Part shown: piece by piece, positions 6,147 through 46,362 of the stretch | Numbering within the stretch: position 1 is the stretch's first letter | Layout: each line of letters opens with the position of its first letter | IMG/VR virus record: IMGVR_UViG_3300020577_006835 | Coordinates: 132,588 to 196,587 of that record | Source: a virus | Lineage: Duplodnaviria; Heunggongvirae; Uroviricota; Caudoviricetes | Length of the DNA: 64,000 bases | Reading direction: 5' to 3' (one strand) | Position numbers and translations under genes: made by a program | Notes under the pieces: generated by a model | Seen by the model: the letters and a program-made list of their open reading frames with translations, nothing else | What the model was told of the DNA's origin: nothing | Databases searched by the model: none

Positions 6147-6551
6147 TTGGACTCGGACAACTTGATCAAGAAGCATCTCGTCGAGAGCAATCCGGGCGCA
6201 TCGCGTTCGTGGATCGCACCCGACGACACCGTGTACCCGCTGGACGTGGCCAACGGGCAGTTCCACGTTCACTGGGCCGAGGACAACGGCGACAAGATCC
6301 ATCCGAGCCTCCACGTGCACGACCAGAACGGCAAGCTCTGGGGTGAGCGCATGATGGACAAGATGATCCTGGCCGGCTGGATCAGGAAGAACAACAAGGA
6401 GCTGCAGTGCGGTGAGGGTCACGAGCACCGTGTGCAGGCGCACATCGACCGGTACGGCATGGGCAAGTGGCACCAGGTCAAGATCAATCTGAAGGCCGGC
6501 GGCAGGAAGGAGATGTCCTTCAAGGAGGGTGAGGTCCCGAGGGAGTGGTGA
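6147..6551 (+). CDS. leader-motif protein with GWIR module
   Basis: GGAGG then TTG; MDSDNLIKKHLVE leader; AGWIRK..GEGHEHRV shared with 15188 gene. Confidence 0.7.
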   Translation: MDSDNLIKKHLVESNPGASRSWIAPDDTVYPLDVANGQFHVHWAEDNGDKIHPSLHVHDQNGKLWGERMMDKMILAGWIRKNNKELQCGEGHEHRVQAHIDRYGMGKWHQVKINLKAGGRKEMSFKEGEVPREW

Positions 6552-10774: not shown

Positions 10775-11263
10775 CTAGGCTGAGCTTGAGTTGAGAGACG
10801 GGGGCAACTTGTGCCCGTGTGTCCTGTGGTGCTCCTGACAGAGCCAGTGAACATCGAGAGGCCTTGAGTAATCTTCATGGTGAGCTTCAACAGTAGTAGA
10901 GCCGCAGATCTCGCAAGGCTGCTTCACGAGCTTCCCGCGGCGCAGAGCGTTGCTCACCGCTCCCCAAGCTCTATATTTATCAGGCTCAAGGCGGCGCCGC
11001 TCAGCTTGGCGGCGCATCTCGTAGGCTCGCCACTCAGGGGTGCGGCGGCGTTGTTTGTTAGCTGCTCTGCGTTCTGGGTTCTGCCAGCGTGCGCGGTCGT
11101 AGGCTCGAACCTCCTCAAGCTTCGCGTTGCGGTGCTCAGTGACATCCTTCTTCGTACAGCTCTTGCACTTCCCGAGGTGGCCGTCAGCCATCTTGGGGTG
11201 CTTGTAGAACTCTGTCAGAGGTTTGACCGTCTGACACTTGAAACAGGGCTTGCCCTCACTCAT
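10775..11263 (-). CDS. HNH-like zinc-binding endonuclease
   Basis: CFKC..KPLTEFY..GKCKSC and CEICG..EAHHEDYSRPLDVHWLC..HH. Confidence 0.75.
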   Translation of the reverse strand: MSEGKPCFKCQTVKPLTEFYKHPKMADGHLGKCKSCTKKDVTEHRNAKLEEVRAYDRARWQNPERRAANKQRRRTPEWRAYEMRRQAERRRLEPDKYRAWGAVSNALRRGKLVKQPCEICGSTTVEAHHEDYSRPLDVHWLCQEHHRTHGHKLPPSLNSSSA

Positions 11264-11307
11264 GGGGCACACCCGTACACTCCTTTCTAATGGAACACCA
11301 GGTCACA

Positions 11308-11583
11308 GTGAGCAGGGCAGATCAGCTGATCAAGCAGGCCCTGACAGAGAAGGCGCTGGTCAGCACGAACAACCACTCTGCGCGCAGCTCCGTCAAGTCG
11401 CTCCGCGGCCGTCCGTCCAGAGGCAGGAGCAAGCCGAGCGACCTGCAGCTGTTCCACAGGTTCCAGAAGCCCAAGCCGCAGGCCCGCAAGCCGGACGAGG
11501 ACATCGAGGCGGCCGACGTGCACGGCAAGATCAAGTTCCGTGTGCTGACCAGGGCGCACCAGAAGGAGTTGTTCTCCAAGTGA
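11308..11583 (+). CDS. small basic leader-motif protein
   Basis: MSRADQLIKQALTE. Confidence 0.7.
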   Translation: MSRADQLIKQALTEKALVSTNNHSARSSVKSLRGRPSRGRSKPSDLQLFHRFQKPKPQARKPDEDIEAADVHGKIKFRVLTRAHQKELFSK

Positions 11584-12659
11584 GCAAGCGGCTGCAGAAG
11601 AAGATCCAGGCGCAGCTGACGCCGGATCTCTTGCATCGCAAGTACAGGCACCTGGCAGCGGAGCACCCGCACGCCGGGCACTGCTACGCCGCGACCGAGG
11701 CCTTGTACCACGCGCTCGGAGCCGAGGGCTCAGGGTGGCGCCCGGTCAACATTCAGTGGGAAGGTTCGCAGCACTGGTTTCTGCAGCACAAGAAGACCGG
11801 CAAGGTGCTCGACCCGACAGCCGGCCAGTTCTCCAAGCCCGTACCCTACGAGCACGGCAGAGCACGAGGTTTCTTGACCAAGCATCCCTCGAAGAGAGCG
11901 CAGGAGATCATGAAGCGAGCCAAGCTCAACGAGTCGAACTGGTTCGCACCCGACTTTGAGAAGGAGAAGGGTGAGTTCGAGCGCGTCTCCCGGGAAACAG
12001 GCATCCACATCGACAAGCTCAAAGGCGCCTTCGCCAAGGGCAAGCTGGCTCCACTCTCGCCAGACCACTTCGCCAGCCTGGAGAACACGGACGCCAACAC
12101 CGGCGAGTACAAGACCGTCGACTCGGTGCACCACATGGCGCAGAGCTACGGTGGCAAGGATTCGCACGGCATCCACCGCGGCTTGACGCAGGGTGAGCAC
12201 CTGCCAGCGCCGATCGTACTGCACAGGAAGGGCAAGAGCCCGACCCTGGTCGCAGGTAACACGAGGCTGACCATGGCCACGGTCATGAACCAGCCTGTGC
12301 ACGCGGTGCACATCAACGTCGACGAGTCCCGCGCAGACCAGCTGATCAAGCTGGTGCTGCACGAGGGTGTCGTGCTCTCCGGCGAGCCTGGCAGCAAGCG
12401 TCTGATGACCGTGGCCATGCAGTACGGCTACCAGGAGACCGGCGAGCCAGAGGTCACGAAGACGGCCGTCGTGCACAAGCTGATCGACCCGAAGACCGGC
12501 TACCAGCTGCAGGTGCGCCGACTGCTGCAGCGCGATCGCGGCCTCGATCTGGACCAGAACATCTGGCAGCACTCTCCGACCAACGATCTGGGCACAGACC
12601 CGGAACATCTCACACAGGTTCTGCGTCTGGCGACGCGCAACGCGAGGGCGATCGCATGA
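11580..12659 (+). CDS. three-module polyprotein: Cys-His-Asp domain, ParB-like domain, unknown domain
   Basis: GHCYAATE..HWFL..VLDPT; LNES; PAPIVL..VAGNTRL; DESRADQLIKLVLHE. Confidence 0.65.
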   Translation: MSKRLQKKIQAQLTPDLLHRKYRHLAAEHPHAGHCYAATEALYHALGAEGSGWRPVNIQWEGSQHWFLQHKKTGKVLDPTAGQFSKPVPYEHGRARGFLTKHPSKRAQEIMKRAKLNESNWFAPDFEKEKGEFERVSRETGIHIDKLKGAFAKGKLAPLSPDHFASLENTDANTGEYKTVDSVHHMAQSYGGKDSHGIHRGLTQGEHLPAPIVLHRKGKSPTLVAGNTRLTMATVMNQPVHAVHINVDESRADQLIKLVLHEGVVLSGEPGSKRLMTVAMQYGYQETGEPEVTKTAVVHKLIDPKTGYQLQVRRLLQRDRGLDLDQNIWQHSPTNDLGTDPEHLTQVLRLATRNARAIA

Positions 12660-13273
12660 GTACTAGACCGAGAAAGAGAGGCAAGGCTCTCACGGTGATT
12701 GGCGCGGTCGTCGACCACCTTCGCCAGCGATTTATGAAGAACGTCGTTGTTCAGACAGACGGCTGCTGGCGGTGGACTGGTCAGCTGCGGGACAACGGGT
12801 ACGGCAAGTTCTCGGTTGTGAATCGCACGCAGTCTGCGCACCGTGTGTCGTACGCCCTGTTTAAAGAGGACATCCCGGCAGACTTGCTAGTAAGACATAC
12901 TTGTCATCAGAAATTCTGCGTCAATCCAGATCACTTGATCCTGGGCACGCACTTGGACAACGCGCAGGATAGCTTGCTAGCGGGGCTGTATCTGCGAGGT
13001 GACGATCACCCGTGCAGGAAGAACCCTTCCGTCATGCCGCGTGGTGAGAGGCACCCACACTCAGTTTTGACTGAGAACTCGGTGCTGAGCATCAGAGAGC
13101 GCTACGCGGCCGGTGGGTGTACCATGCAAACCCTAGCTTCTGAGTACAGATGTAGCATTACAGCGATCTCGTGCATCACTTCCGGTAGAACCTGGCTACA
13201 TGTAGGCGGCCCCATCACAAAGCCTGGCCTTGGTGGTAACGGCAAAGGTCGCAAGATTAGGAGGGCAGCATGA
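12656..13273 (+). CDS. HNH homing endonuclease with C-terminal HTH
   Basis: GCWRWTG..GYG..AHRVSY..VRHTCH..CVNPDHLILGT..DN; RGERHPHSVLTE. Confidence 0.9.
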   Translation: MSTRPRKRGKALTVIGAVVDHLRQRFMKNVVVQTDGCWRWTGQLRDNGYGKFSVVNRTQSAHRVSYALFKEDIPADLLVRHTCHQKFCVNPDHLILGTHLDNAQDSLLAGLYLRGDDHPCRKNPSVMPRGERHPHSVLTENSVLSIRERYAAGGCTMQTLASEYRCSITAISCITSGRTWLHVGGPITKPGLGGNGKGRKIRRAA

Positions 13274-14433
13274 GCAAGCATCCGGTGATTGTCATTCCGG
13301 GGCTTCAAGGGTCCACGCTGCAAAATTCCTATCAGCTCCGACCAGCTCCTCTCTGGAACGCGTGGGACGCGCTGCAGAAGCAGTTCTTCGGCCTCGACTT
13401 CGAGTCCCTGGCCCTGGCCAAGGGTGACACGGACTACGCCGACCATGTGGTCTCGACACCGCACCAGACCGTAGCCCTGCCGTACGAGGCGCTGGTCGAC
13501 TCGCTGCGCAGCAGGCTCAAGGTGCCGGTCTACGCCTTCCGCTACGACTGGCGGTACAGCTGCGCCACGTCAGCCGAACAGCTGGCAGAGTTCATCGAGC
13601 ACCTGCAGCGCAAGCCGATGCGCTCGATCCCTGACTGGGACGGCAGGTTCGACATCGTCTGCCACAGCTTCGGCGGCCTGGTCCTCAGAGCCTACCTGCA
13701 GCGCGTGCGCGGCTTGACGCAGGACGACGTGAACCGTGTCGTCTTCCTGGCTGTGCCGCACTACGGCGCCATGGATGCGCTTGACGCTCTGGTCCGAGGC
13801 CAGGCGCCGATCTTCGGCGGCCGCAAGGAGCTGCGTAAGCTGACCAGGACCTTCCCCTCTGCCTACGAGCTGCTGCCACGCTTCCCTGGCGCGGTGACCG
13901 ACGAAGAGGGCAAGGAGATCGACATCTTCGACGTCGACGACTGGCAGCGCAACGTGGTGTACGTGCCCGACCCTGACGGTGCGCAGCAGTGGAAGGTGGA
14001 CCAGGCCATGCTCGACAAGGCCGAGGTCACGATGGAGGGCATGGCCGACGTGCTGAGCCAGGGCATGCTGACACCTGACCAGTGCCTGACCGTGGTCGGT
14101 CTCGACCCTGGCTCGACACCGGTCTCGATCAAGGTCAAGCGCAGCGGCGGCCCGGTCGAGAACTGGTTCGACTTCAGCAAGGTCATGTACGGCGTCGGTG
14201 ACGGCGTTGTGCCGCTGATCTCGTCGCACATCCCTGGCGTGGACTACGTGTGGATCTCGAACAGCGACGCCTCTGCGATCAGCTTCGCACGCCTGATCTC
14301 GCTGCACGCCTTCCTGCCCTGCATCGACGAGGTGCACGCCATCTGCGAGCGCTTCTTCAGCGGCATCTCCGGTCCTGGCCTGCTGCCGCTCGGCATGCAG
14401 CCTGGTCAGTTCATCAGCGGGAAGCTTCCGTGA
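13270..14433 (+). CDS. alpha/beta hydrolase, LCAT/PGAP1-like lipase or acyltransferase
   Basis: VIPGLQGS, YDWR, CHSFGG nucleophile elbow, VPHYGA, GDGVVP. Confidence 0.85.
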   Translation: MSKHPVIVIPGLQGSTLQNSYQLRPAPLWNAWDALQKQFFGLDFESLALAKGDTDYADHVVSTPHQTVALPYEALVDSLRSRLKVPVYAFRYDWRYSCATSAEQLAEFIEHLQRKPMRSIPDWDGRFDIVCHSFGGLVLRAYLQRVRGLTQDDVNRVVFLAVPHYGAMDALDALVRGQAPIFGGRKELRKLTRTFPSAYELLPRFPGAVTDEEGKEIDIFDVDDWQRNVVYVPDPDGAQQWKVDQAMLDKAEVTMEGMADVLSQGMLTPDQCLTVVGLDPGSTPVSIKVKRSGGPVENWFDFSKVMYGVGDGVVPLISSHIPGVDYVWISNSDASAISFARLISLHAFLPCIDEVHAICERFFSGISGPGLLPLGMQPGQFISGKLP

Positions 14434-15191
14434 GCGACGAAGCACCCTCACTGCGCATGAGCTGGCGCGGCCGCAAGCCAGCGGGCCGCAACTGGGGCGG
14501 CAGTCTGAAGCCGTTCAAGACCGAGACCGGTGTGACCGTGCGTACGGTGCAGGCAGGCGACGGCATCGCGCACAAGATCTACGACGGCAAGACCTACGTC
14601 GGTCACATCTCCGGCTTCCCGGACATCCGAGACAGCCTGCGAGTCTACAAGACCCAGGTCGAGGATGAGCACCGCGGTAAAGGGCACTGGCAGAGCGCGA
14701 TTCGCAAGCTGGCCGACATCTACCCGGGCGGCGTTCACCTGAACAAGTACGAGCTGAGCCATGCGGGCCACTCCGCTGCGCGCAAGGTCCCTGGTGTCGA
14801 GGAGACCGACGAGAAGTTCTTGATCAAGCCGAGGCCGAGGGAGAGCGCCGACCAGCTGATCCGGCAGAAGCTCGAAGAGGGTCGCAAACGCCAGTACTTC
14901 TTCCACGGCACGAAAGCCCGACTACGCCGTGGCGACCTTGTCATGCCAGCCTCCAAGGTCGAGGGCGGCAAGACGAACTACGACGCGACGGACAAGGACT
15001 ACGCCTACGCGATGACGCGCGCTGACCATGCGCTGGACTACGCCGAGGTGAGCCACCAAGAAGGCAAGCCGGTAGTTTACCGGGTTCGTTCCCTGGGGGA
15101 CCACGAGCCGGACCCGAGTGACGATAGCAGGGGTGAGTACGTCCGCTCGCGCACAGGGTTCCGAGTCATGGGCAAGGTGCGGAAGCCATGA
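14430..15191 (+). CDS. GNAT domain plus Arr-like ADP-ribosyltransferase domain
   Basis: VEDEHRGKG motif A; linker ESADQLIRQKLEE; FFHGTKA.L..GDL..P..NY..VYRV..E.DP. Confidence 0.7.
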   Translation: MSDEAPSLRMSWRGRKPAGRNWGGSLKPFKTETGVTVRTVQAGDGIAHKIYDGKTYVGHISGFPDIRDSLRVYKTQVEDEHRGKGHWQSAIRKLADIYPGGVHLNKYELSHAGHSAARKVPGVEETDEKFLIKPRPRESADQLIRQKLEEGRKRQYFFHGTKARLRRGDLVMPASKVEGGKTNYDATDKDYAYAMTRADHALDYAEVSHQEGKPVVYRVRSLGDHEPDPSDDSRGEYVRSRTGFRVMGKVRKP

Positions 15192-17254
15192 CGCGCGCCG
15201 ACCAGCTGATCCGTGCAGTGCTTGATGAGGCTTTTGCACACAGCACCAGTACCCCAAAGCGTTTGGACATGATCCTGACGTCCGGGGTGCTCAAGGGTCA
15301 GTTCAGCCACCATCACTGGGCGAAGCCAAGCGCATCAAGAGGTTCCAAGAAGATCGTCAGCTTCTCGGACAATCCGTACTACTCGCATCACGACAACGGT
15401 CCTGCGCTGCTGTTTCACAGACACGCTGTTGGCGACCAGGTGTACACCCCGATCAAGATCGACGACCACGACCACTACGACTGGGTCAAGAACAACCTGG
15501 ACAAGATCGACCCGTCACTGCACAGCGAGTACGGTGACCACGCCGACACCATGACCGCGATGCTGCACGCCGGCTGGATCAGGAAGGCCAACAGCGACAG
15601 CTACACGGTGGGCGAGGGGCACGAGCATCGTGTCCGGGCCTACCACCTGCGCACGCACCCGGAGGAGCGCGAGATCTACATCGACGTCAGGCACCGCAAC
15701 AAGAAGCGGTCGAGCTACAGGTACAACCTGGACACGAGGACCAAGGTGAAGCTCGGTGAGTCCGCCGACAGCCTGATCCAGCTCATGCTCCTGTTCGAAG
15801 ACTTCAACGTCAAGATCAAGGACCCGCACAAGCTCTACCTGAAGCACGACTACACGGAGCCGGACAGGTACGCGACGCCGGGCAACCCAGGCTTCCCGGA
15901 GCACGGCTACAACATCACCCACCCTGAGCACGGCCACATCGGCCTCATCGTGGGCGACGAGGAGCCGAACGGGAGGTTCAACATCCGGCGCGTCGTGTTG
16001 AGTGGGAAGTACGGTGGTCTCACTGATGCGAAGGGTGCGCTCGGTGTTCAGGGTGTCATGCAGGTGGGCCGTGAGCTGCGGAAGTTCGGCCACACGCACG
16101 TCTACTCGAACTCCAGGGTCAGCGGTGTGCGCTCGGAGCGTGGCAACCACGTCGTCCCTGACGTCAAGCTGCCCGAGAGCATCGACGAGATCACGAAACC
16201 TGCCAAGGTCAGCTTCAGCAAGATGGGTCCGTCACCGGAGATCCCCGACGAGATCCGCAACATGACCTTCTTCCACGGCGTGCACGACGGCGACCGCGGT
16301 GAGCAGATCCTGCGCAGCGGTAGGTTGGTGCCCAGTACCTACGGTGTCGGCAGCAGGTGGGACAAATCGCTGACACCGCGCGATGACAAGGTGTACTTGG
16401 CTCAGGACCGTGTCGGGGCAATCTCGTACATGCAGCACCAGTGGAACGAGCACACGCCGTGGTATCAAGGGGAACCCAAGTCGAAGTACAGTTATCTGTT
16501 TCAGGTGTCCGGCCACGACCTCAACCATGCCGAAGCTGACGAGGACGTCGTGCGTCAAGTCTACAAGCAGACGCATGCGTGGGACGCGGAGCCGGAGTAC
16601 CGTCACCTGATACACCCAAGCTCCGTCAACCACGAAGTTGCACATCAAGGTAGGGCTCTGATTTCTCCGGATGAGCACCAGGTGATGGTCACGCGTCTCA
16701 GGTTGAAGAGACTCGACCACATTGCAAAGAAGCTGGCCAACAAGCTTCCTGTCCATCTGCACCACGACCTGATCATCAAGAACGGCTCTTCGGTAGCGCA
16801 CGGTGGCCCCGTCAAGATCACTGGCGCATGGCGCGTGCACAAGGACAAGCTCGACCAGCTGAACCGCTACGACGACTCGAACTTCGACGACATCGCCGAG
16901 CCGGTGCACCACCTGATCGGCAAGCAGGAGTCGATCGACGAGAACACGATCCCGAAGGGTGAGTGCTTCAGCTGGGCCTTCAAGCGCATGCTCGACCACC
17001 ACGTCAAGGGTGAGCACGACGCGGTCCTCGTGCACGGCAGCGTCAAGCACCCGTGGACAGGCAAGAGGTACGAGCACGCCTGGGTCGAGCACAAGGGCAA
17101 GGTGTACGACTGGCAGAGCACGGCCATGGGTCTCGGCAAGCAGCACACCGTGGCCTCGTTCAAGGCCGGCTACGAGCCGAAGCAGATCAAGAGGTACAAC
17201 GGCAAGCAGGCCGTGCGCGCCTCGGCCCGCGCCAAGCACTACGGTCCTTGGTAG
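15188..17254 (+). CDS. multi-module polyprotein (ART-like + GWIR, GNAT-like, ART-like, transglutaminase-like)
   Basis: MTRADQLIRAVLDE; internal ESADSLIQLMLLFE and ESIDE x2. Confidence 0.7.
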   Translation: MTRADQLIRAVLDEAFAHSTSTPKRLDMILTSGVLKGQFSHHHWAKPSASRGSKKIVSFSDNPYYSHHDNGPALLFHRHAVGDQVYTPIKIDDHDHYDWVKNNLDKIDPSLHSEYGDHADTMTAMLHAGWIRKANSDSYTVGEGHEHRVRAYHLRTHPEEREIYIDVRHRNKKRSSYRYNLDTRTKVKLGESADSLIQLMLLFEDFNVKIKDPHKLYLKHDYTEPDRYATPGNPGFPEHGYNITHPEHGHIGLIVGDEEPNGRFNIRRVVLSGKYGGLTDAKGALGVQGVMQVGRELRKFGHTHVYSNSRVSGVRSERGNHVVPDVKLPESIDEITKPAKVSFSKMGPSPEIPDEIRNMTFFHGVHDGDRGEQILRSGRLVPSTYGVGSRWDKSLTPRDDKVYLAQDRVGAISYMQHQWNEHTPWYQGEPKSKYSYLFQVSGHDLNHAEADEDVVRQVYKQTHAWDAEPEYRHLIHPSSVNHEVAHQGRALISPDEHQVMVTRLRLKRLDHIAKKLANKLPVHLHHDLIIKNGSSVAHGGPVKITGAWRVHKDKLDQLNRYDDSNFDDIAEPVHHLIGKQESIDENTIPKGECFSWAFKRMLDHHVKGEHDAVLVHGSVKHPWTGKRYEHAWVEHKGKVYDWQSTAMGLGKQHTVASFKAGYEPKQIKRYNGKQAVRASARAKHYGPW

Positions 17255-43333: not shown

Positions 43334-43824
43334 TCGCTGACGACCTGATCAAGGCTGCGCTCAACGAGGCCCCACTCAAGATCGACAACGAGCACGGGCT
43401 CGGCGCGGTGCCGGACAACCGGAACGTCAACTACATGGGCTACACCGTGCACATGAAGCCGGCCGAGTTCCTGAAGCTGAACCCAGCGCGCCCCGATCAC
43501 CCGCAGCACGCCATCGACCACGTACGAGCCGGGGGTGCTGTCGGCACGCCGTTCATCTCAGCGAAGTGGAACGAGACCGGCAAGCACTGGGAGGTCTACC
43601 AGCACGAGGGTCGCGGCCGCATGCAGGCTGCGCACGAGCTGTTCCCTGATGAGGACGTGCCGGTGCACGTGTTCCCCAGCGGTGAAGGCTACGAGATCCG
43701 CTCCAGGCACCTGACGGACGAGCACCTGTTCGCCCCGATCAAGTCGGACGAGAGGCGTGGCGCGATCAAGTTTACCTTCCAGCCGCAGCGCGTGATCCAC
43801 GACGGCAAGGAGAAGACGCGGTGA
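43330..43824 (+). CDS. leader-motif protein with ParB-like domain
   Basis: MIADDLIKAALNE; GTPFI..WEVYQHEGRGRMQA. Confidence 0.65.
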   Translation: MIADDLIKAALNEAPLKIDNEHGLGAVPDNRNVNYMGYTVHMKPAEFLKLNPARPDHPQHAIDHVRAGGAVGTPFISAKWNETGKHWEVYQHEGRGRMQAAHELFPDEDVPVHVFPSGEGYEIRSRHLTDEHLFAPIKSDERRGAIKFTFQPQRVIHDGKEKTR

Positions 43825-44381
43825 GAGCCGACGAGCTGATCTGCGCGCAGCTCACCGAATCCGAGTATTCGGTGTTCAAGGTGCCGCATACCAACATGCT
43901 GGTTGGTGACCCGTACTACAACACCAACATCAGGCACCAGGAGCGCGGCCTCATGAGCCTGCGCGACTTCGTCAGGAACGATGGCAGCGAGGTGTTGCAC
44001 AAGCTGTACGCGGACAGGAAGCTCAGCCAGAACGACTGGAGCCCGGTCTCGTTCCACGGACTCAAGATCTATAAGGGTGATCAGCACATCGCCGACGTCG
44101 AGTACAACGTGCTGCAATCGAAGAAGGGCCAGCACGCGCACATCGGATGGGCTTACAACACGAGTTCTTCGACCAACCTTGGATCTCGTGCCGACGAGCC
44201 GCACCCAGGTGCGTTCAGGGCCGTCGTCAAACACATCCAGCGTGAGCACCCGAAGGTGGGTTCGATCTCGGCGGACAGGATGAGCGGAGCTGGTCAGGGT
44301 GCGCGTGTCTGGTCCCCGCCGAAGCCCAAGCCGCAGCAGCGGGAGTTCCCGTTTGCCAGCGCCCAGGCAGGTGCACGGTGA
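43821..44381 (+). CDS. leader-motif protein with GNAT-like module
   Basis: MRADELICAQLTE; PGAFRAVVKHIQREHP..ISADRMSGA. Confidence 0.65.
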   Translation: MRADELICAQLTESEYSVFKVPHTNMLVGDPYYNTNIRHQERGLMSLRDFVRNDGSEVLHKLYADRKLSQNDWSPVSFHGLKIYKGDQHIADVEYNVLQSKKGQHAHIGWAYNTSSSTNLGSRADEPHPGAFRAVVKHIQREHPKVGSISADRMSGAGQGARVWSPPKPKPQQREFPFASAQAGAR

Positions 44382-45601
44382 GCGATCAGGCTGACAGACG
44401 CAGCCTGCCGGCTGAGGTGCGCCGCATGTCTGCCGAGACGGCCAAGAAGCTCGCAGCTGCGCTCAAGCAGGGGCTCGTAGACCGCAAGAAGCCTGAGAAG
44501 GTCGACGAGGCTGTCTCCAAGAGAGCCGTCAAGCTCATCGCGCAGGAGCTGGACACAGGCCGCTCCAGGATGAGCGAGGTGCCCCGCAAGGTGCGTGATG
44601 CCTCCCGTGCCAGCCTGCCTGACAAGGTCACCGTCTGGCGCTCGGTCGCTCTGCACAGCGAGAACCCGGGCATCCGACCAGAGACCGGTGTCGTGTCCAC
44701 CACGCGCAGCCCGCGCGTGGCCATGAACATGGCGACCAACTACCCGGTGCTCATGGGCAAGGACAAGTTCATCGCTCCCAAGCCGGCCATCCTGCGCTAC
44801 GAGGTGCCTCGCGAGCGCGTGCACGCGTACGTGCCCGGGATGATCGACCAGGCCCGAGCCGACCACGGTGACGAGCTGAAGAAGATGAAGATCACCGGCC
44901 GGCGCAGCTACCAGCGCATGAGCGTGCACGACGTCTTCGACCAGACGCACCGCGAGGACGAGGTGCTGGCCGACGTGTCAGGGCTCACGCCCGAGGTGCT
45001 GCACTTCCACGGGGGCGAGCAGGTGGCCGACCAGGAGCACATGCACGCGATCCATGACCTGGTGCAGGGTAGGGCTCAGGGCTCCGGTGCTGAGTACATC
45101 GACTCGCGCAAGAAGTACGGCACCTACTTCCGCGACGAGCCCAAGGCGGCACAGGAGTACGACGACTTCTTCAAGAAGGCGCGGCACCACTTCCGCGAGA
45201 GCGTGAACGAGGCTGTGCTGAGACCGTTCCGCTGCTCCTGTGGCCACTCGTGGGTCGACGAGGACACCCCGTCCGGCAGGGCCTGCCACGCGTGCTCAGG
45301 TGGCAAGGGCAAGCCCTTCGTCGGCGAGTCGGTCGACCAGCTGATCAGAGCTGTGCTTGAGGGTGACGATGACTGGATGCTCGACAAGGGCATCTTCGAT
45401 CTCAATTCGAAAGCCAAGCCGAAGTCGAAGCCTAAGGCTGTTGACCACAGGCCGCTGGCGAAGTGCAGCGAGTGCGGCAAGAGGCACCGGCTGCGACCTG
45501 CTTTCATGCCCGGCGATGACCGCCCTGACGCGGAGCGCGTCAAGGACACGCTGTGTTTCCGGTGTGAACGCACCCACCGTGCATCTATGAGCAACGACTG
45601 A
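44378..45601 (+). CDS. polyprotein: ART-like domain plus two zinc-finger modules
   Basis: VWRSV..VSTTRSPRVA..LRYEV; linkers ESVNE and ESVDQLIRAVLE; CSCG..CHAC; CSECG..CFRC. Confidence 0.65.
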   Translation: MSDQADRRSLPAEVRRMSAETAKKLAAALKQGLVDRKKPEKVDEAVSKRAVKLIAQELDTGRSRMSEVPRKVRDASRASLPDKVTVWRSVALHSENPGIRPETGVVSTTRSPRVAMNMATNYPVLMGKDKFIAPKPAILRYEVPRERVHAYVPGMIDQARADHGDELKKMKITGRRSYQRMSVHDVFDQTHREDEVLADVSGLTPEVLHFHGGEQVADQEHMHAIHDLVQGRAQGSGAEYIDSRKKYGTYFRDEPKAAQEYDDFFKKARHHFRESVNEAVLRPFRCSCGHSWVDEDTPSGRACHACSGGKGKPFVGESVDQLIRAVLEGDDDWMLDKGIFDLNSKAKPKSKPKAVDHRPLAKCSECGKRHRLRPAFMPGDDRPDAERVKDTLCFRCERTHRASMSND

Positions 45602-46362
45602 TGCGAGCCGACCAGCTCATCAAGGCCAAGCTCGACGAGATCGCCAAGCCGGCCAAGGTCAAGTTCTCCAGCATGGGGCCGTCACCGGCAGTGCCCGAGG
45701 CGATGCGCTCGATGGACTTCTACCACGGTGTCGACAACGATGCGGCTGCGCACGGGATTCTTGCCGCAGGCAGGCTGGAGCCGGCCACCTATGGGCACAG
45801 CACCTTCCACCGTGGGTACTCCGCTCCGCGGCCGGACAAGGTGTACTTGACGAAGGACGCGTCGCACGCCGCGGAGCGTGCTCTGAGTGGTACTCGACTG
45901 GGCAGTGACACGGAGGAGCCCTACCTCAAGACTGGTAGGTACGGGTACATCTTCAAGGTCGCTGGCGGCGATCTGAACAGCGTCGAAGCCGACGAGGACA
46001 ACATCGAGCGCGCGTACTGGAACACGCATGGTGGGGGGCCTGCCGGACTCGGCGTGCACCACGGCGTGGCTGATCTTGGCAAGCGGGTGCTCAGCCAGAA
46101 GGACCACGACACCCTGATGGGTGGAGGCTCGTTCAACAGACGCGTGCGCGTCGCCAAGAAGCTCGCCGGCCACATGACGCCGGACATGCACCACGACCTG
46201 GTCTTGACGCAGAACGCACACATCGCGCACGGCGGCCCGGTCAGGATCGTCGGAGCGTGGCGCATCGACAAGACGCGCAACGGTGAGTTCCACTGGAACG
46301 GCTCGGATCTGTTTCAGAAGGCCGAGCCGCTGCACCACCTGATCGGCAAGGGCCTCAAGTGA
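45601..46362 (+). CDS. leader-motif ART-like protein, paralog of internal module of 15188
   Basis: MRADQLIKAKLDE; FYHG..IL..GRL.P..KVYLT. Confidence 0.7.
   Translation: MRADQLIKAKLDEIAKPAKVKFSSMGPSPAVPEAMRSMDFYHGVDNDAAAHGILAAGRLEPATYGHSTFHRGYSAPRPDKVYLTKDASHAAERALSGTRLGSDTEEPYLKTGRYGYIFKVAGGDLNSVEADEDNIERAYWNTHGGGPAGLGVHHGVADLGKRVLSQKDHDTLMGGGSFNRRVRVAKKLAGHMTPDMHHDLVLTQNAHIAHGGPVRIVGAWRIDKTRNGEFHWNGSDLFQKAEPLHHLIGKGLK

Follow-up and report, generated by a model that had tools for sequence, protein, structure and literature searches.

A candidate head-cargo polyprotein of an uncultured jumbo phage, composed of modules that meet at a shared leader-like peptide

In bacteriophage T4, the internal proteins and Alt are docked onto the prohead core by a capsid-targeting sequence (CTS), which is removed by the protease gp21 (PMC3012670, PMC7411985, PMC5694885). 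The phiKZ-like phages have many paralogous head-internal proteins, the cut follows a small-x-Glu motif, and the propeptides have been implicated in targeting (PMC5694885, PMC7411985). CTS-tagged cargo is already known, and so are polyvalent proteins, for which processing by embedded metallopeptidase or papain-like domains has been proposed and no common inter-domain joint has been described (PMC5512222). In our literature search we came across no account of a shared peptide, address and cut site in one, that recurs between domains, and none of the papers searched on prohead proteases, ejection proteins and giant phages used the word polyprotein. Here, we analyzed an open reading frame (ORF) at positions 15188-17254 (+ strand) of a 64,000-nucleotide stretch of DNA, referred to as the window, which comprises bases 132588-196587 of a 208,019-bp IMG/VR virus record from an uncultured wastewater jumbo phage. 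With a probability of roughly 0.65, we propose that its 688-residue product, P0001, belongs to a head-packaged cargo set, that it joins four effector-type modules, each folding independently, in one chain, and that it is a protease-processed ejection-protein polyprotein whose packaging, cleavage, ejection and enzymatic activities are inferred.

The phage record has a G+C content of 63% and a CheckV completeness of 93%, and nearly all of its genes lie on the + strand, as do all parts of the ORF and its paralog. Residue n of P0001 begins at window position 15188+3(n-1). The protein opens with a leader, M-T-R-A-D-Q-L-I-R-A-V-L-D-E (residues 1-14, 15188-15229), a candidate capsid-targeting propeptide that ends in L-x-E. 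It is followed by module m1 (residues 15-190, 15230-15757), the second half of which (about residues 92-177) is formed by a domain that we call GWIRK. A full-length internal linker, E-S-A-D-S-L-I-Q-L-M-L-L-F-E (residues 191-204, 15758-15799), is a further copy of the leader motif and leads to module m2 (residues 205-329, 15800-16174). A short joint, E-S-I-D-E (residues 330-334, 16175-16189), separates m2 from module m3 (residues 335-580, 16190-16927), and a second E-S-I-D-E (residues 581-585, 16928-16942) separates m3 from module m4 (residues 586-688 and the stop codon, 16943-17254). An earlier note on this DNA, made from its letters and translations, had counted about 4-5 modules in the ORF; four are delimited by joints, with a fifth if m1 consists of two parts, as it may.

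The ORF was compared with a second gene of the window. The 253-residue product of ORF 45601-46362 (+), P0002, consists of a leader, M-R-A-D-Q-L-I-K-A-K-L-D-E (residues 1-13, 45601-45639), and a stand-alone paralog of m3 (residues 14-253 and the stop codon, 45640-46362). In BLASTP, residues 325-579 of P0001 aligned with residues 4-250 of P0002 at 38% identity and 56% positives (E 4e-53), and the alignment crosses the joint, so that E334 at the end of E-S-I-D-E pairs with Glu13 at the end of the P0002 leader. In both proteins I-[T/A]-K-P-A-K-V stands directly after the boundary Glu and H-H-L-I-G-K marks the end of the shared module, after which P0002 stops three residues on and P0001 enters its second E-S-I-D-E. 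The earlier note had claimed that the internal module aligns with the 45601 protein from right after its Glu, and that one domain thus occurs both alone behind a leader and embedded between Glu joints; the alignment bears out both statements, and the coordinates proposed there (16190-16920 and 45640-46362) are off by a few codons at most. Misassembly or chimerism of the ORF was rejected, because P0007, a metagenomic fragment of independent origin with 97% identity, runs across the m3-m4 joint and because the identical 688-residue sequence is present in the ESM Atlas. Searches of GenBank phages with the ORF (blastn, tblastn) and with an m4 homolog gave no match at DNA or protein level, and scans of IMG/VR with P0002 and with m3 plus m4 found no relatives.

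The leader and linker share the consensus A-D-x-L-I-x3-L-x-E, which P0001 carries as its N-terminal leader and one full internal copy, in addition to the two E-S-I-D-E joints. A relaxed form of this pattern had 13 matches in the predicted proteome against 0.33 expected, an enrichment of about 40-fold (maximum of 2 in 100 shuffles). Strong copies were confined to two clusters of the window, at 11.3-17.3 kb and 41.3-47.2 kb, with more degenerate N-terminal copies at 6147, 7525, 9233, 36700, 37221 and 37970. Altogether, more than 15 proteins of the phage that are otherwise unrelated have this peptide at their start or as a joint, and we put the tagged set at 20 or more genes. N-terminal copies of the motif have their start codon 1-3 codons ahead of the Ala, and internal copies follow (G)-E-S. 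Internal linkers and N-terminal leaders are equally well conserved at the peptide level, and synonymous codons for the Ala, Asp, Leu, Ser and Arg of the motif differ between copies, which indicates that the constraint acts on the peptide and not on a DNA repeat. An origin as a DNA repeat or recombination signal was rejected as the primary cause for the same reason, and short DNA identity at the joints may still aid recombination; the two E-S-I-D-E joints share 12 of 15 bases, with AGC in one and TCG in the other as the Ser codon. Two small leader-bearing genes were also observed outside the window, at G000:C1:202437-202715 and 203334-203666, where they flank a lysozyme-like gene in the structural region; their leaders read M-T-A-D-D-L-I-K-V-V-L-E and M-T-A-D-R-L-I-E-L-V-L-S.

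Homologs explain the short joints. At the position of residues 330-334, where P0001 has E-S-I-D-E, they carry E-S-V-A-D-A-L-I-K-Q-Q-L-N-E or a similar peptide, and at the position of the second joint P0006 has Q-E-S-I-A-D-T-L-I-R-Q-K-L-R-E. It follows that the short joints are truncated forms of the linker, without its helical middle and with [I/V/L]-x-E retained. In P0011, encoded by contig L009, the orthologs of ORF 44378 and P0002 form one continuous reading frame with a full E-S-A-D-Q-L-I...L-S-E linker between them, which shows that N-terminal leader and internal linker are one element in two positions.

With phmmer, 1.84 billion representatives were searched exhaustively, and the 403 hits fell module by module. 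m4 was found in 128 proteins, standing alone in 47, C-terminal in 29, N-terminal in 20 and internal in 25, and most members of its family are stand-alone proteins of 100-120 residues; what this family suggests is a widespread, unnamed group of putative T4-type internal head proteins. m3 was found in 22 proteins, several of which are stand-alone forms of 235-265 residues, and [L/I]-x-E stands directly before the start of m3 in all eight lineage members. m2 was found in nine proteins, with P0032 and P0045 as stand-alone homologs, and the own N-terminal leader of P0032 (147 residues) ends exactly where the linker of P0001 ends. The orthologs of P0002, P0004 and P0005 (63-65% identity), also stand alone with a leader. 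In P0008 (78% identity), m2 is joined directly to m4; in P0010, m3 comes first after a 9-residue leader and is followed by a full linker and other domains; P0006 retains no more than M-K-L-R-E ahead of m3 and has a full linker behind it; P0031 has E-S-L-E-E before m2; and the m4 homolog P0066 adjoins a Pfam ART-PolyVal domain. Judged from these comparisons of sequence, m1 to m4 are independent modules. As side observations, many stand-alone m4 homologs of other phages, such as that at L010:10001-10363 from the T4-like metagenomic phages, start with peptides like those of the T4 internal proteins, for example M-K-T-F-L-E-Y-M-E and M-T-S-F-K-Q-W-I-E. The gene for one of the stand-alone homologs, P0069, is found on a T4-like contig of 169 kb, at a distance of 1.6 kb from genes for Gp23 and Peptidase_S77. 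The GWIRK domain, of about 90 residues and with a conserved G-W-I-R-K motif, is seen in many of the cargo proteins and occurs in addition at window position 6147-6551 and at L005:2110-4092; P0089 has two copies and P0029 has six, the largest number seen, in one metagenomic protein of 892 residues.

The same boundaries are used among close strains. Contigs L005, L006 and L007 have flanking DNA 96-99% identical to the window. In the strain that encodes P0009, positions 15475-16934 of the window are replaced by 460 bp, giving a 355-residue protein, and identity resumes right after the Glu (R-V-N-E/N-T-I-A-K-G-E-C versus E-S-I-D-E/N-T-I-P-K-G-E-C). The cargo gene at 11583-12659 (+) has an internal linker at 12324-12365, and the modules that it gains in L006 and L005 lie exactly there: in the window the linker is followed by G-V-V-L-S-G; in L006 an extra module of ~170 residues stands between ...V-L-H-E and ...V-L-G-E, with G-V-V-L-S-G after it; and in L005 a GWIRK module is additionally inserted between E-S and R-A-D-Q-L-I, which makes two extra modules against one in L006. 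L008, at about 80% identity, lacks m3 precisely between the two joints, and DNA homology to L005 and L008 resumes at the second E-S-I-D-E (16928). At the other cluster, the cargo gene upstream of the paralog (44378-45601, +) has its internal linker at about 45326-45364 and in L009 continues into the paralog; in this contig, the gene at 43821-44381 is absent, the C-terminal module of ORF 44378 is exchanged, and homology is regained from the third codon of P0002 on. Whole modules that begin or end at Glu are thus gained or lost between strains whose DNA is 96-99% identical, and the joints clearly serve also as boundaries of cassette recombination. The earlier note had seen in the Glu-bounded module the unit of evolution and had advised a comparison of module order in related phages: the separate homologs, the start of m3 after [L/I]-x-E and the strain differences at Glu all agree with that view, and in relatives the modules are shuffled, fused, inserted and lost at the joints.

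The phage also encodes a candidate for the protease that would use these sites. Proteases of the T4 gp21 type (S77) cut after [L/I]-x-E. Just past the end of the window, a match to PF03420 (Peptidase_S77) was found at G000:196581-197159 (E 3.7e-15, above the cut-off); the corresponding ORF, G000:C1:196596-198170, encodes 524 residues and begins 9 bases beyond the window end, and the gene that follows it encodes a gp23-like major capsid protein. In T4 gp21, we take H85 and S140 to be the catalytic residues. In an alignment with gp21 (NC_000866) the equivalents of both are conserved in the phage protein, and the S77 prohead protease of this phage is apparently active. Its ORF carries a fused-scaffold-like coiled-coil tail of roughly 300 residues, which contains a leader-like A-E-R-L-V-E-A-V-L-L-R-E; this tail could be the docking partner that the leaders imitate.

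The leaders may be set beside their T4 counterparts. The T4 internal proteins IPII and IPIII start with M-K-T-Y-Q-E-F-I-A-E, and IPI starts with M-K-T-F-K-E-F... and has I-T-E at residue 19; gp22 starts with M-L-K-E-Q-L-I-A-E, gp21 starts with M-N-E-P-Q-L-L-I-E, and gp23 has L-T-E at residue 65. In work by Mullaney and Black from 1996, the CTS of IPI, IPII, IPIII and Alt and their processing by the gp21 prohead protease were reportedly described. Two hallmarks of T4-type cargo are found in the present phage, namely an S77 protease with its His and Ser and a short shared N-terminal peptide ending in [L/I]-x-E on unrelated proteins; a third, removal of the propeptide by the protease with the mature protein in the virion and ejected from it, is predicted.

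The folds of the modules were then compared with known structures. No family was found for P0001 and P0002 in Pfam and PHROGs, and all 19 members of the m3 alignment (A1) were without a Pfam match at E ≤0.1. An AlphaFold2 model of m3 built from these 19 sequences had a predicted local distance difference test score (pLDDT) of 85 and a predicted template modeling score (pTM) of 0.83. The top 43 Foldseek matches in the PDB were all ADP-ribosyltransferases (ART; best E 7.6e-3, probability 0.97). VIA-align gave Z values of 6.8-5.0 to Tpt1, Scabin, pertussis S1, TreX, DarT and Arr, and its top 50 rows were nearly all ART, Tpt1, DarT, Arr or PARP chains (Z 6.8-3.7); as all of these values are below 8, the support for the ART fold comes from the uniformity of the matches and not from any single score. 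By Foldseek and VIA-align, m3 is accordingly a predicted member of the ART split beta-sheet fold. In A1, His29 (Y-Y-H-G-T), Tyr69 (V-Y-L-T) and D117-E118-D119 are invariant, within sequence motifs resembling Y-H-G-T and V-Y-L-T. Comparison of A1 by hhalign with the ART-PolyVal region of P0066 (probability 0.3%) and with the Arr-like module of ORF 14430 was not significant, and we therefore do not claim sequence-level membership of m3 in either family.

For m4, the alignment of 70 sequences (A2) has C7, H44 and D55 invariant or nearly so, and the model had a pLDDT of 83 and a pTM of 0.76. Foldseek matches were weak, and VIA-align, with all Z values below 8, ranked LapG (Z 7.0) and NTAQ1 (Z 6.9) first, then PeiW, protein-glutaminase and cathepsin B. 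On the model, m4 would be a minimal transglutaminase/papain-like Cys-His-Asp domain and a predicted hydrolase. For m2, all ten ESM Atlas structure rows were GNAT acetyltransferases (template modeling score 0.47-0.55) with a low-confidence Atlas model, and we treat the putative GNAT-like fold as a lead only. Per-module structure prediction had been named as a check in the earlier note: m3 and m4 model confidently alone, whereas the whole-protein ESM Atlas model has a pTM of 0.36; m2 was seen only through the low-confidence Atlas model, and for m1 the ESM Atlas gave no fold match.

Considering these results together, we have proposed a model for how the ORF may work. The helical A-D-x-L-I-x3-L-x-E peptide would act like the T4 CTS and dock the precursor onto the prohead scaffolding core. 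The S77 prohead protease would then cut after the [L/I/V]-x-E that ends every leader, linker and short joint, which would free m1, m2 (GNAT-like), m3 (ADP-ribosyltransferase fold) and m4 (Cys-His-Asp hydrolase) separately inside the capsid, and on ejection the freed modules would enter the host along with the DNA and act there. A polypeptide would need only a single address, so that internal joints could shrink to E-S-I-D-E provided that the cut site is kept, and since every module carries the same joint, recombination at joints would fuse, split, insert and delete modules without loss of delivery. Taken as a whole, the ORF probably amounts to a plug-and-play set of proteins for injection into the host. 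The wider proposal, in which one peptide would be capsid address, protease cut site and recombination joint at once and the injected arsenal would be re-dealt between near-identical strains, is in our judgment evenly balanced between being right and wrong.

Several observations weigh against the head-packaged polyprotein. Some genes of the clusters have no leader, such as the LCAT-like lipase gene at 13270-14433, and the cargo clusters lie 17-50 kb away from the head genes. m2, m3 and m4 match no Pfam or PHROG model, so that their predicted enzymatic roles rest on fold and motifs. The phage S77 protease is only about 30% identical to that of T4, from which its cut specificity is extrapolated, and [L/I]-x-E is short and common and occurs inside modules too. 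Finally, the left junction of the P0009 replacement falls within m1, after residue 91, away from any Glu joint.

Foremost among the rivals is a polyvalent effector of several domains that stays uncleaved: at most the N-terminal leader is removed, the intact 76-kDa chain acts, and the linkers are fusion relics kept on as helical spacers and recombination joints. It would fit the role of the joints in recombination, and precedents exist in T4 Alt (682 residues), which loses its N-terminal propeptide only, and in some polyvalent proteins that are delivered unprocessed (PMC5512222). We consider it unlikely, because a pure spacer would not need [I/V/L]-x-E and yet the joints that lack the helical part keep it directly before the module (E-S-I-D-E, E-S-L-E-E, R-V-N-E, V-L-G-E, V-L-D-E); the conservation of internal linkers as peptides, in the manner of N-terminal leaders and across synonymous codon changes, speaks against it as well.

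Clearly less probable is a shared peptide that serves as an address elsewhere, for secretion, for a membrane or compartment, for a chaperone or as an oligomerization helix, with proteins that act late in the infected cell. The virion location of the proteins is an inference, and the distance of the cargo clusters from the head genes would suit such an address. Its weak points are the resemblance of the peptide to the N-termini of T4 core and internal proteins, the leader-bearing small genes within the structural region (202437, 203334), the m4 homolog with a T4-type CTS beside gp23/gp21 genes, and a domain content (ART, GNAT, thiol hydrolase, Arr-like ART) typical of injected take-over or counter-defence proteins. 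Least probable of all is cutting of the joints by m4 as an autoprocessing peptidase, in cis or in trans and with no part for the prohead protease, since the conserved Cys-His-Asp, the cysteine-peptidase-like fold and the frequent processing peptidases of polyvalent proteins are outweighed by the absence of m4 from most linker-bearing proteins of the phage and its relatives, by an m4 family whose mostly stand-alone members have nothing to process, by Glu at P1 with L or I at P3, which is the gp21-family signature, and by fold matches that include amidases and isopeptidases as well as proteases.

The neighbouring genes belong to the same landscape. Directly upstream, the cargo gene at 14430-15191 (+) encodes 253 residues, its GTG start being set after its orthologs, which also have 253 residues. 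It comprises a GNAT-like N-terminal module, a full linker at 14841-14885 and, at the C-terminal end, a module with a match to Arr-ms in Pfam (rifampin ADP-ribosyltransferase, 1.1e-8). Counting this module, m3 and ORF 45601, the phage would have at least three ART-fold cargo modules. The leaderless gene at 13270-14433 (+) encodes a 387-residue lipase of the LCAT/alpha-beta-hydrolase type with G-H-S-F-G-G, and its orthologs carry Pfam LCAT. The small leader-bearing ORF 11290-11583 (+) encodes 97 residues (92 in L005), mostly a basic low-complexity tail, and in relatives there is a 4-base overlap between its counterpart and the start of the cargo gene that follows. A programmed frameshift joining it to ORF 11583-12659 was rejected, because relatives have two separately called, overlapping genes. 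HNH-type endonuclease genes at 10775-11272 (-) and 12656-13273 (+) lie between the cargo genes and are absent in L005 and L006, where the flanks are 97-99% identical; both probably encode homing endonucleases and were inserted not long ago.

The proteins that a phage injects are the earliest of its weapons to arrive in the host, and outside T4, P1, N4 and the phiKZ-like phages they are difficult to spot in sequence data. In the uncultured jumbo phage studied here, a whole cargo set, with 20 or more genes, can be picked out by a simple signature, the set is seen evolving by cassette exchange at a common joint, and exact cleavage positions (after E14, E204, E334 and E585 in P0001) can be predicted. 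If the model holds, any domain flanked by joints would automatically be packaged, released and injected, which would provide a fast arms-race mechanism by fusion, fission, insertion and deletion of cassettes, and the minimal E-S-I-D-E-type joints would show that address and cut site are separable. The unnamed m2, m3, m4 and GWIRK families, which have hundreds of metagenomic members, would then be placed in a functional context, that of ejected effectors. The leader or joint would also offer a ready-made tag with which foreign proteins could be loaded into capsids, one at a time or in cleavable arrays.

Compared with known systems, the resemblance to RNA virus polyproteins is a functional analogy only: one ORF, several mature proteins, a virus protease and a repeated short site, with cleavage predicted in the present case. 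Unlike there, lineage and protease are unrelated, the polyprotein state is optional, modules exist also as single genes, and the set varies between near-identical strains. The phiKZ-like giant phages share a gp21-related protease and many head-internal proteins (phiKZ gp175, SPN3US gp245 substrates; PMC5694885, PMC7411985). Their motif is A/S/G-x-E, their propeptides are long (about 100-130 residues) and discarded (PMC5694885, PMC7411985), and their extra sites lie within propeptides and not between functional domains, with no evidence of several enzymes joined per precursor.

The phage resembles T4, with IPI, IPII, IPIII and Alt, in having a short N-terminal peptide ending in [L/I]-x-E common to otherwise unrelated cargo proteins, an S77 protease in the genome, an ADP-ribosyltransferase among the cargo (compare Alt) and cargo genes that are highly variable between strains. 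In contrast to the T4 CTS, the peptide is longer (13-14 residues), unrelated in sequence and present on 20 or more genes, and its role is a predicted one. T4 has a single N-terminal CTS per cargo protein, whereas the phage peptide is also internal, up to three times per ORF, where it joins different modules. Like polyvalent proteins (Iyer, Burroughs, Anand, de Souza and Aravind, 2017; PMC5512222), the ORF combines several unrelated effector domains (ART, acetyltransferase, thiol peptidase-like) in one polypeptide, with extensive domain shuffling and predicted delivery with the invading DNA; at least two unrelated effector-type domains stand in one chain, and the architectures are shuffled in relatives. 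Signature domains of polyvalent proteins, such as ART-PolyVal or MuF, were not found by Pfam in P0001 or in the 19 A1 members (E ≤0.1); m3 does not match the ART-PolyVal model, and only the distant m4 homolog P0066 adjoins such a domain. What sets the ORF apart from polyvalent proteins is that every boundary bears a prohead-protease-type site, which doubles as the N-terminal address of single-module genes.

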